Shown in pieces: positions 10,560-12,665 of a stretch of DNA of 64,000 nucleotides (the stretch's first letter is position 1; each line of letters opens with the position of its first letter). Under the pieces are notes generated by a model. The model saw nothing but the letters and a program-made list of their open reading frames with translations, searched no databases and was not told the origin of the DNA. A program made the position numbers and the translations under genes. The stretch comes from an uncultured bacterium (GTDB taxonomy: Bacteria; Babelota; Babeliae; Babelales; Babelaceae). Where the stretch lies: contig CAVRKK010000001.1 in the NCBI GenBank assembly GCA_963722385.1, positions 186,813 to 250,812 on the forward strand, in the 5' to 3' direction.

Positions 10560-11582
10560 CTAAAGATTATATTCGAAGAATTGATCAGTTGGGTAAAAGA
10601 TACAAAACTCGTGAGCTTGCGGCGTCCCCGGGGTGTTTTTTAAGAGGTCATCAAGCTGCTTTTTTAACATTTGTGCCCGGAACTTTTGCGAGAAATCGAA
10701 ATTTCCTAAATTATAATAATCATAAGTCGAATAATTGTAAAATTGAAATACCGAGGAATAGGGAAAGCACATGGCTTGCTGACTTTGGCGAATAGCATAA
10801 TAATAGACCAACTCAAGATACTCGGTTGAGCCACACCACGAATTCGGTTTTAAGTAGAATGGGAGATCGGTATCTACAACGGCAAAGTCGCCTAATGGCG
10901 TAATTTTCACATTGCCAGGATTGCCATCACAATGTCCTGCTTGATAGAGCAAGAACTTTACTCGTTCAAATAGGTCGCTTTTTTGCTGCAAAAATTCATT
11001 TAAATCTATGTCACTGCTATACAAATTTAGAAATTCCAGCTTTTTAGCAAGCAAAATATAAAGCGTTACTTCTGCTTCTTTAATGGGGACGATGCATTTT
11101 TCTGGAATAACTATGTTCTGGCATAAGGCGGTATTTCTATCGCAAATGTTTTGCAAAATTTCACGACCCTCAAGTCGCTCGAGAGCTCCCGTAAACTTTA
11201 TGACATAGTTCGGAATGTCTTGGTGTAGCGCGACAGGAGTATGCCCCTCGTTAAACATGGACATACCAGTTTCTGCTAGATTAATCGGTTGCTTCGAACT
11301 GCGGTTCCTGGCAACATCGATAATAATTCTGTTTTTGAGTATCTCGTCAATTAACGAGTCCTTGCAACGATATTTTTCGATAAGCTCTTGCTCCGAAGGA
11401 AGACCATACAGCCCAGGCTTTCCCTGATAAGACAGTCCTGGAATGGCCATTGGCGAAGCGGTATATGCGGACATGCTTATGTTGAATGGGTACGGAAACC
11501 GGTTGTGCTCAAAATATTGCCCATGCTCGCTTTTTATAACACCTGCGCTTAGTATGGCTAATAAGAAAAATATGTTACGCAT
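10560..11582 (-). CDS. Secreted protein-kinase-like fold protein, paralog A
   Basis: I moved the start to ATG 11582 (MRNIFFLLAILSAG leader). HCDGNPGN (10911-10934) fits HxDxxxxN exactly, and an Asp follows 13 residues after the Asn (VVDTD). An upstream YVIKF may supply the beta3 Lys. It is about 75 percent similar to 11769-12665. Confidence 0.65.
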   Translation of the reverse strand: MRNIFFLLAILSAGVIKSEHGQYFEHNRFPYPFNISMSAYTASPMAIPGLSYQGKPGLYGLPSEQELIEKYRCKDSLIDEILKNRIIIDVARNRSSKQPINLAETGMSMFNEGHTPVALHQDIPNYVIKFTGALERLEGREILQNICDRNTALCQNIVIPEKCIVPIKEAEVTLYILLAKKLEFLNLYSSDIDLNEFLQQKSDLFERVKFLLYQAGHCDGNPGNVKITPLGDFAVVDTDLPFYLKPNSWCGSTEYLELVYYYAIRQSQQAMCFPYSSVFQFYNYSTYDYYNLGNFDFSQKFRAQMLKKQLDDLLKNTPGTPQAHEFCIFYPTDQFFEYNL

Positions 11583-11768
11583 TATGCTCCAGCAGAATTT
11601 AAATTGCAATTAAAAATAATAAAACAACGCTTTAATTTTATTTATTATGCTTAAGATACTTTTTTATTTCGATATTGTCAATAAACATCTAGCGCTTTCG
11701 CAATTTTACACTATTAGAAAAAATTACACTTTTCTCTTGCAAGAGGCGTTAAATGCAGCGTCTTCGCA

Positions 11769-12665
11769 TCAAGGGCAGATTTCTTCCTGAGAAAAGCTGA
11801 ATTTCCCCAAAGTATAATAATATGAAAATGGTAGCATTGAACTAACGTCGAAGCATGCACCTTGCTGATTGGAGCGAATGGCGTAGTAATAGTTCATCTC
11901 AAGATGTTCAGTCGTGCCACACCATGAATTGGGTCTTAAGTAATATGGCAGATCGGTATCTATAATAGCAAAATCACCAAGTGGCGTAATTTTCACATTG
12001 CCAGGATTGCCATCGCAATGACCTGCCTGGTAGAGCAAGAACTTTACTCGTTCAAATAAGTCACTTTTTTGCTGCAAAAATTCGTTTAAGTCTATGTCGT
12101 CATTGTATAAATTTAACAATTTTAATTTTTCAGCAAGTAATACATAGAGCGTCGTTTCTGCTTCTTTAATTGAAACGATGCATTTCTCTGGCATAATAAT
12201 ATTCTGACATAACGAAGTATTCCGAGCGCAAATGTTTCTCAATACTTCGCGCCCTTGAATTCGTGCAACCGCAGCCCTAAATTTTATGACATAATTTAGA
12301 TTGGTATAGGTGCCAACCGGTGTATGTCCTTCGCCAAAGGTAACTATGCCTGCTTCTGATAGGTAAACTGGTTGTTTAAGGCTTACGTTTCGTGCAATAT
12401 CAATAATAATCTTATTTTTGAGTACCTCATTAATTAACGAATCTTTACATCGATATTTTTCGATAAGTTCTTGTTCAGGCGGAAGGCCATAAAGATCAGT
12501 CTTGTCCTGACAAGACAACCCTTGGATTATTATCGGTAAAGGGGTATACGTGGGTAAGCTTATATTAAACGGGTAGGGAAATCGTTGATGCTCAAAATAA
12601 CGTCCATGCTCACTTTTCAAATAAGCGGTGCTTATGGTGGCTAACAAAAAAAATAGTATATACAT
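11769..12665 (-). CDS. Secreted protein-kinase-like fold protein, paralog B (shorter C-terminus)
   Basis: It has the leader MYILFFLLATISTA and an identical HCDGNPGNVKITPLGDFAIIDTD segment (HxDxxxxN at 11997-12020). It lies in tandem with paralog A. Confidence 0.65.
   Translation of the reverse strand: MYILFFLLATISTAYLKSEHGRYFEHQRFPYPFNISLPTYTPLPIIIQGLSCQDKTDLYGLPPEQELIEKYRCKDSLINEVLKNKIIIDIARNVSLKQPVYLSEAGIVTFGEGHTPVGTYTNLNYVIKFRAAVARIQGREVLRNICARNTSLCQNIIMPEKCIVSIKEAETTLYVLLAEKLKLLNLYNDDIDLNEFLQQKSDLFERVKFLLYQAGHCDGNPGNVKITPLGDFAIIDTDLPYYLRPNSWCGTTEHLEMNYYYAIRSNQQGACFDVSSMLPFSYYYTLGKFSFSQEEICP

Follow-up and report, generated by a model that had tools for sequence, protein, structure and literature searches.

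The window analysed here is a stretch of 64,000 nucleotides from an uncultured bacterium of the Babelaceae (assembly GCA_963722385.1, contig CAVRKK010000001.1, positions 186,813 to 250,812). Between its positions 10560 and 12665 it carries two adjacent genes of the same orientation, referred to below as genes A and B, whose products combine an N-terminal export leader with a predicted protein-kinase-like domain of very small size.

10560-11582, minus strand: gene A, the downstream paralog, coding for a 340-residue protein, predicted to be exported and kinase-like
11769-12665, minus strand: gene B, the upstream paralog, an open reading frame (ORF) coding for a 298-residue protein, likewise predicted to be exported and kinase-like

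The two proteins are 69% identical over 300 residues, and the codon alignment of gene A with gene B gives a ratio of non-synonymous to synonymous substitution rates (dN/dS) of 0.10; both copies are therefore under purifying selection. Genes A and B are thus tandem paralogs, both of which have been kept. The initial annotation, made from the sequence alone, had described a tandem pair of small, leader-bearing paralogs, and this description holds for the two minus-strand ORFs, each of which encodes a hydrophobic leader. For gene A, the listed start TTG 11609 was rejected in favour of ATG 11582, since the latter is preceded by GGAG 4 nt upstream (11587-11590) and yields the 340-residue form under which the product is called in a public assembly (P0001, 99% identical). 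An identical copy of the gene B product is present in public assemblies (P0002). Each gene has its own ribosome-binding site, that of gene B reading AAGGGGGA (12668-12675), with a TATAAT at 12685-12690. The 186-nt spacer between A and B contains a promoter-like element, TTGACA-17-TATCTT (11681-11653), identified by its match to the consensus only.

Conservation between the paralogs is uneven along the genes. Over codons 192-241 the proteins are 100% identical and the DNA 87-93% identical, compared with a DNA identity of 57-82% elsewhere. The earlier claim that the putative catalytic segment is the best conserved at the nucleotide level was thus confirmed, although the ranges then given were slightly offset from those found here, about 10860-11009 in gene A and 11946-12095 in gene B. 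In the same region, codons 191-250 (10830-11009 versus 11916-12095), the proportion of synonymous differences (pS) between the paralogs is 0.44, against 0.62-0.80 for the rest of the genes, which points to gene conversion or to some constraint at the nucleotide level.

Relatives of the pair are extremely scarce. A word-indexed search of 5.8 billion proteins returned only the two paralogs and their public-assembly copy; run with a profile, it yielded one further sequence only, P0007. When 1.84 billion representative proteins were scanned in full by HMMER with the two-paralog profile, six distant relatives were retrieved (P0003-P0008; E 2e-19 to 5e-5; 238-469 residues), each of them a singleton cluster. 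In total, the family numbers nine sequences, which fall into eight clusters at 90% identity, out of roughly 15 billion proteins. The family alignment comprises 8 sequences, namely both paralogs and the six distant relatives, which are 24-31% identical to gene A in this alignment. No match was obtained in a genome-collection scan with the two-paralog alignment, in a metagenome scan for the family, or by tblastn against plasmids and against 50,697 phage genomes. A phage or plasmid origin was rejected on these empty tblastn searches and on the setting of the locus, which is chromosomal, with phage genes absent nearby. The pair belongs to a very rare family that has neither annotation nor name in databases. 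One relative, P0004, lies in the same ENA assembly as a near-identical copy of this locus, a soil or sediment metagenome-assembled genome whose source project is described in PMC12313526; the organism therefore probably carries at least three copies.

Export leaders are found throughout the family. Leader calls were rule-based, relying on hydropathy and on the residues at positions -3 and -1 relative to the cleavage site, and for the two window proteins they are as follows.

11529-11582, minus strand: leader of gene A, residues 1-18, MRN followed by IFFLLAILSAGV; candidate cleavage between SAG and V or between IKS and E; 12-residue mean Kyte-Doolittle hydropathy 2.72; second hydrophobic segment absent
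12612-12665, minus strand: leader of gene B, residues 1-18, MY followed by ILFFLLATISTA; candidate cleavage between STA and Y; mean Kyte-Doolittle hydropathy 2.28

In all 8 members, a short n-region is followed by an h-region of about 12 residues with a mean hydropathy of 2.1-2.7, and a further membrane segment is absent, the later 19-mer maximum being at most 1.13. Most relatives have a basic n-region and acidic residues after the h-region, as in classical signal peptides. At the candidate cleavage sites of the two paralogs, small residues occupy -3 and -1, and by this rule-based reading the leaders of the family qualify as Sec signal peptides. The Sec-type leaders proposed initially for the two paralogs, with their hydrophobic N-terminus and plausible -3/-1 site (SAG before V, STA before Y), were accordingly recovered and extend to 8/8 members of the family.

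The segments that suggest a kinase-like active site are distributed over the two genes as listed here.

11196-11198, minus strand: K129 of gene A (in YVIKF), proposed beta3 ATP-binding Lys, invariant in 8/8 members; at the end of predicted strand 126-129, right before helix 133-149
12282-12284, minus strand: K128 of gene B, equivalent to K129
10911-10937, minus strand: putative catalytic loop of gene A, G216-H-C-D219-G-N-P-G-N224, with G216, C218, D219 and N224 invariant; between predicted helix 202-215 and strand 225-227
11997-12023, minus strand: equivalent of the putative catalytic loop in gene B
10866-10874, minus strand: D237-T-D239 of gene A, proposed metal-binding Asp (DFG equivalent), with D237 and T238 invariant and D or E at 239; directly after predicted strand 233-235
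11952-11960, minus strand: equivalent of D237-T-D239 in gene B
10830-10835, minus strand: C250-G251 of gene A, the CG motif, 13 residues after D237; C250 in 7/8 and G251 in 8/8 members
10827-11411, minus strand: predicted kinase-like core of gene A, residues about 58-252, comprising N-terminal helices, a five-stranded N-lobe with helix C, helix E, the catalytic loop, the metal-binding Asp and the CG motif; local confidence 70-91 over most of its length; the region matched in distant relatives

The sequence HCDGNPGN, which has the form HxDxxxxN, occupies residues 217-224 of A (10911-10934) and 216-223 of B. The Asp of VVDTD or IIDTD (D237 in A, D236 in B) stands exactly 13 residues past the motif Asn, which is the spacing between the catalytic-loop Asn and the DFG Asp in PKA (reference sequence verified as 100% identical to PDB 3agl_A). 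The upstream YVIKF is present in both paralogs. All three elements had been pointed out initially, and all three are borne out by the translations and by the PKA sequence, with the Lys of YVIKF invariant across the family. The 30,966 ORF residues of the window contain the pattern H.D....N.{12}D in these two ORFs and nowhere else, where shuffling predicts 0.075 occurrences, and since the genes are paralogs the two occurrences count as one event. Taken by itself, the motif would be weak evidence; its weight comes from its invariance in distant relatives. Indeed, the 8-sequence alignment has only 13 invariant columns (M1, K129, R136, P160, K162, K181, G216, C218, D219, N224, D237, T238 and G251), and 4 of the 13, K129, D219, N224 and D237, are positions expected from the kinase analogy. 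The invariance of these four predicted positions is the strongest sequence-level argument for that analogy. Of the motif residues named in the initial annotation, the Lys, the Asp, the Asn and the Asp at +13 thus persist at this level of divergence, whereas the His does not, being H, Y or M across the family (H217 in gene A). Since PKA itself has Tyr at this position, a non-conserved His is tolerable.

A second conserved feature involves cysteines. C218 is invariant and sits at the position of the Arg in the kinase HRD motif, and the spacing from C218 to C250 is 31-32 residues in all 7 members having both Cys. This conserved pair would fit an oxidising compartment, and a C218-C250 disulfide may be envisaged as a speculative possibility. 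Past the CG motif, the tail is variable and rich in Tyr and Ser; about 20% of residues 255-300 of gene A (10683-10820) are Tyr. The tails of P0005 and P0006 are also Tyr/Ser-rich, that of P0005 reading FYSGYSPYSTYYSSSSS. Such tails could be autophosphorylation sites or simply low-complexity sequence. Two more divergent exported relatives are found next to family members. One, of 334 residues, adjoins P0004 (contig L004, 6813-7817, minus strand) and keeps the Lys, the Asn and I-D-x-E, with an Asn in place of the catalytic Asp (AGIWNIKRN); judging from this substitution, it may be an inactive partner. The other is adjacent to P0007 (contig L009, 6238-6825, plus strand).

The quality of the AlphaFold2 prediction varied with the alignment supplied. 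From the two paralogs only, the model failed, with a predicted local distance difference test score (pLDDT) of 34. The 8-sequence alignment gave a predicted template modelling score (pTM) of 0.61 and a mean pLDDT of 62; most positions between 60 and 250 reach a pLDDT of 70-91, and past residue 250 the prediction is poor. Two N-terminal helices precede the predicted strands, and the helical segment of residues 60-96 is conserved and has a pLDDT of about 90. The elements predicted thereafter are b107-112, b115-120, b126-129, H133-149, b162-169, b172-180, H194-200, H202-215, a loop, b225-227, b233-235 and D237. This is the order of protein kinases, with b1-b2-b3, helix C, b4-b5, helix E, the catalytic loop, two short strands and the Asp. 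K129, D219, N224 and D237 fall on the beta3, catalytic-loop and DFG-Asp positions of the predicted model, and this topology suggests that they would cluster in space at one pocket. The initial annotation had staked its claim on a bilobal kinase fold, and a kinase-like fold with the bilobal order of elements is what AlphaFold2 predicts.

The comparison with known structures that had been proposed initially, by Foldseek, leads in the same direction. Against the PDB, the best 50 matches are all protein or lipid kinases, with RIO2 in first place (E 1.2e-4, probability 1.0) and JNK, CDK9, CK2, Aurora, VPS34/PI3K and YopO among the others. Against BFVD, a library of predicted viral structures, most of the named top matches are phage and giant-virus kinases, with E-values reaching 4e-7. 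The predicted fold, the invariant residues and the leaders in 8/8 members support the original suggestion of minimal secreted kinases or phosphotransferases. We consider it fairly probable that the two proteins are Sec-exported phosphotransferases with a minimal protein-kinase-like fold, which form a rare unannotated family and act on protein hydroxyls outside the cytoplasm. They are probably active phosphotransferases. As far as computation goes, the family is supported as a new exported minimal branch of the kinase-like superfamily, one that would fit the superfamily but no defined family.

Several observations weigh against this reading, many of them at the level of sequence. Neither paralog has a match in Pfam or NCBIfam, and all 8 members searched against Pfam at E<=10 give nothing relevant. 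No kinase was found in PDB sequence searches with a single protein, with the 8-sequence profile, with the most divergent member or with the divergent neighbour. PHROGs returned non-significant matches only, to 'serine-threonine kinase' and to a gp0.7-type kinase family (E 0.2-0.3). Comparison by hhalign with a RIO2 profile, made from 25 database sequences annotated PF01163, gave a probability of 5.4% (P=0.007), or 11% when restricted to the core. As regards structure, the model rests on only 8 sequences, and the Foldseek TM-scores are 0.20-0.28 (over all 340 residues), with root-mean-square deviations of 5-16 Å and about 150-190 columns aligned. The C-lobe is greatly shortened by comparison with canonical kinases. 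P0004, the shortest member, ends 12 residues past the CG motif, a convergent gene starting right after it in two independent assemblies, and the kinase C-lobe helices F to I are therefore absent. The candidate helix-C Glu, E135, is present in 5/8 members and lies only 6 residues past K129, the adjacent R136 being invariant. The Gly-rich loop is reduced, the b1-b2 turn reading E-G-H-S/T in five members and not GxGxxG. Among the contigs of the six relatives, no conserved gene neighbourhood was found, so that gene context gives no clue to function or substrate. Finally, ATP is scarce in the periplasm; an exported kinase would therefore need a further destination or another donor.

Some of these points could mean that the proteins are not kinase-like at all, but unrelated exported alpha/beta proteins with a chance motif and a wrong model, or else catalytically dead binding proteins. 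The small alignment, the mean pLDDT, the low TM-scores, the failure of the two-sequence model and the absence of a significant sequence-profile link would all be understandable in that case, and the Asn at the catalytic Asp in the divergent neighbour of P0004 indicates that the wider group tolerates loss. On the other hand, chance would have had to make exactly the four kinase catalytic positions invariant (4 of 13 such columns), correctly spaced and on the secondary-structure elements where kinases have them, and two independent structure libraries return almost only kinases. Moreover, an enzyme that had lost its activity would not have retained all four at 24-31% identity. We thus regard the absence of a kinase-like fold, or of activity, as very improbable.

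The exported phosphotransferase that we favour nevertheless stands apart from the known kinase families. None of the 8 members matches PF01636, PF01633, PF06293 or PF00454 (APH, choline kinase, Kdo-WaaP and PI3K-PI4K) at E<=10, and the same searches were negative for PF01163 (RIO) and for PF00069 and PF07714, whose APE motif and helices F to I were not found either. In local hhalign comparisons, the catalytic residues fell into register at non-significant scores. D219, N224 and D237 align with D228, N233 and D246 of RIOK2 (loop HGDFNEFN; sequence verified as 100% identical to the PDB chain). With the single PKA sequence (loop YRDLKPEN), HCD...N...DTD...CGSTEYL aligns with YRD...N...DFG...CGTPEYL over 40 columns only (P=0.023), and the best path places C250-G251 on C199-G200 of the PKA activation segment, again without significance; the global mode gave a meaningless result. 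The profile comparison suggested earlier therefore yields the right catalytic register against both RIOK2 and PKA but scores that are not significant (5-11%). Membership of any named kinase family (RIO, ePK, APH, Kdo, PI3K) was rejected on the empty profile searches and the non-significant hhalign scores. This agrees with the initial statement that no named family could be assigned, Pfam, NCBIfam, PHROGs and PDB sequence searches all being without a significant match.

The closest structural matches are RIO2/RIOK2 (PF01163; 6fdn, 9f81 and 1zar; E about 1e-4, probability 0.97-1.0). RIO kinases resemble the pair in their compact domain, the short region past the metal-binding Asp and the extra helix before the N-lobe. 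They differ in being cytoplasmic or nuclear ribosome-assembly factors without a leader. They also possess a GxGKES loop, and a long insert separates their Lys from helix C, which in the pair is predicted to start 4 residues after the Lys. RIO kinases have been proposed to act mainly as ATPases, and their place as closest matches raises the question of whether the pair has a kinase-like fold with another chemistry, for instance AMPylation or UMPylation as in SelO/YdiU, glutamylation as in SidJ, or mainly ATP hydrolysis. That the protein-kinase-like (PKL) fold can serve chemistry other than that of kinases is documented (KINtaro database paper, PMC10870513). The atypical Gly-rich loop and helix-C Glu of the pair would also be compatible with such a departure. 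In SelO-type AMPylators, however, ATP is bound in a flipped orientation and other motifs are required; no feature of the pair points that way. Since, in addition, the D-x4-N...D spacing is the canonical phosphotransfer arrangement and Pfam gives no sequence match to SelO, Fic-like or SidJ families, another chemistry appears distinctly improbable.

Eukaryotic protein kinases (ePK, PF00069) are a further point of comparison. The [HY]-x-D-x4-N spacing and the 13-residue distance from Asn to Asp are identical in PKA, and C-G-[ST] follows the Asp at a distance similar to that of C199-G200-T201 in PKA. Missing from the pair's family are GxGxxG, a clear helix-C Glu, the APE motif and the scaffold of helices F to I; the pair further differs from ePK by its leader and by the Cys in place of the HRD Arg. 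A likeness in concept exists with HopBF1, a very small atypical bacterial kinase fold that has almost no sequence similarity to eukaryotic kinases, was recognised only by structure and is described as a minimal protein kinase acting on a protein substrate (PMC9950578). HopBF1 differs in being a type III effector without a Sec leader, and it is not among the best 50 Foldseek matches in the PDB. In the viral library, the best matches are phage proteins annotated 'Protein kinase' and giant-virus Ser/Thr kinases (E 4e-7 to 1e-4). These phage entries are presumably T7 gp0.7-like; they are set apart from the pair by the PHROGs scores, the empty tblastn searches in phage genomes and the chromosomal position of the locus. 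Finally, FAM20C and VLK of animals and CotH of spore formers have a kinase-like fold, an export signal and conserved Cys, and work outside the cytosol. They are much larger than the pair and bear elaborate insertions; for FAM20C and CotH, the family gave no Pfam match, and none of the three appears among the top Foldseek matches.

The nature of the substrate is where a further explanation has to be weighed, namely that the pair are exported small-molecule, lipid or glycan kinases working on the envelope, with a lipid head group, a sugar or an antibiotic as substrate, in the manner of APH, choline, Kdo or PI kinases. The pattern [HY]-x-D-x4-N ... I-D-x-[DE] agrees with the phosphotransferase motif of Brenner type known from APH and choline kinases, and its I-D-x-[DE] ending recalls lipid and small-molecule kinases in general. 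Four relatives have a D-x-H-x-x-N variant resembling DRHxxN, the PI3K/PI4K motif, and the Foldseek matches include PI3K, VPS34 and an APH-like phage kinase. Yet small-molecule kinases of the PKL fold form their substrate pocket from a large helical C-lobe, which is missing in the pair, and the known lipopolysaccharide kinases lack a leader and are active at the cytoplasmic side of the membrane. Together with the negative Pfam searches for the APH, Choline_kinase, Kdo and PI3_PI4_kinase domains even at E<=10, this makes an envelope kinase quite unlikely. The characterised very small kinase-like domains, namely RIO, HopBF1 and phage gp0.7, act on proteins or as ATPases. Because of this, and because the small-molecule enzymes have a large C-lobe, we lean to a protein substrate, speculative as this part of the proposal is.

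A mechanism for protein phosphotransfer by the exported pair can be outlined as follows, with residue numbers of gene A. The leader would take the protein across the inner membrane and be cleaved near residue 14-18. The mature protein would consist of a five-stranded N-lobe with helix C and of a much reduced C-lobe. In its active site, K129 on strand 3 would hold the ATP phosphates, D219 would serve as the catalytic base, and N224 together with D237 would bind Mg2+ or Mn2+. In an oxidising compartment, a C218-C250 disulfide may fix the short activation segment. The phosphate would be transferred to hydroxyl groups of proteins, perhaps including those of the protein's own Tyr/Ser-rich tail by autophosphorylation. 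The enzyme would act beyond the cytoplasm of the bacterium; most plausibly, it would first be released further, towards a eukaryotic host. A bolder version of this proposal sees in the family a new architecture within the superfamily. In such an architecture, a Sec-exported core of about 190 residues would do without helices F-I, the helices of residues 60-96 would take over the packing role of the C-lobe, and the C218-C250 disulfide would replace the phosphate-Arg clamp; uncultured host-associated bacteria would phosphorylate with it targets that lie outside their own cytoplasm. We judge this version unlikely.

Genes elsewhere in the window are relevant to the question of a host. A 229-residue protein at 48003-48692 (plus strand) has a DOT1 histone-methyltransferase domain (PF08123, E 5.6e-19); it is a chromatin enzyme of eukaryotic character, encoded here on the chromosome of a bacterium. 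Ankyrin-repeat proteins are encoded at 31706-33724 (plus strand) and 53958-55130 (minus strand), and three large ankyrin proteins in a row adjoin P0004 on its own contig (L004, 621-6723). The presence of ankyrin and DOT1-like proteins suggests a host-associated lifestyle, and in this context a host target for the kinase-like pair is plausible, if still speculative.

Bacterial effectors repeatedly prove to contain kinase-like folds whose chemistry is unexpected, and surveys based on structure continue to bring in further families (PMC9758233, PMC10870513, bioRxiv 10.64898/2026.09.18.752743). The family described here has escaped every sequence profile library tried; its members join an export leader of classical type to a kinase-like core that is among the smallest. 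If active, it would offer a compact model of the minimum needed for phosphotransfer, and would be one of the few bacterial kinases built for an oxidising, extracytoplasmic setting. Should its members reach a eukaryotic host, they would be effectors of a new class, alongside the ankyrin and DOT1-like proteins of the same lineage.

The immediate surroundings of the pair, between 8 and 21 kb, are made up mostly of orphan genes, with a G+C content of 0.40-0.44 compared with 0.45-0.50 for much of the window. Convergent with gene A, and ending 21 nt from it, is a 613-residue orphan (8697-10538, plus strand) with an N-terminal hydrophobic segment and a lipase/esterase-like HGTWG ... AHSHG (GxSxG), without a match in Pfam or NCBIfam. 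On the other side of the pair, the region 12926-16222 (plus strand) encodes a protein of 1098 residues that is built of many lactonase-type beta-propeller repeats (PF10282, E 9e-86), together with a stretch rich in Gly and Ser and a membrane anchor at the C-terminus; contig L001, a near-identical public sequence, has two ORFs in its place (938 and 146 residues). Large ORFs without a Pfam domain are found at 47-5281, 16291-20607 and 48925-53835, and include one for a 1636-residue protein. Elsewhere in the window, a sulfatase (PF00884, E 4e-51) adjoins a formylglycine-generating maturation enzyme (PF03781, E 5e-83) at 5308-7850 (minus strand), and an erythromycin-esterase family protein is encoded at 23945-25342. 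The cumulative GC skew over positions 1-64000 is flat to about 38 kb and then falls steadily, a fall that coincides with a long run of minus-strand genes including those for RNase Y, IF3, RecA, a SurA-like protein, MiaA and CarD.

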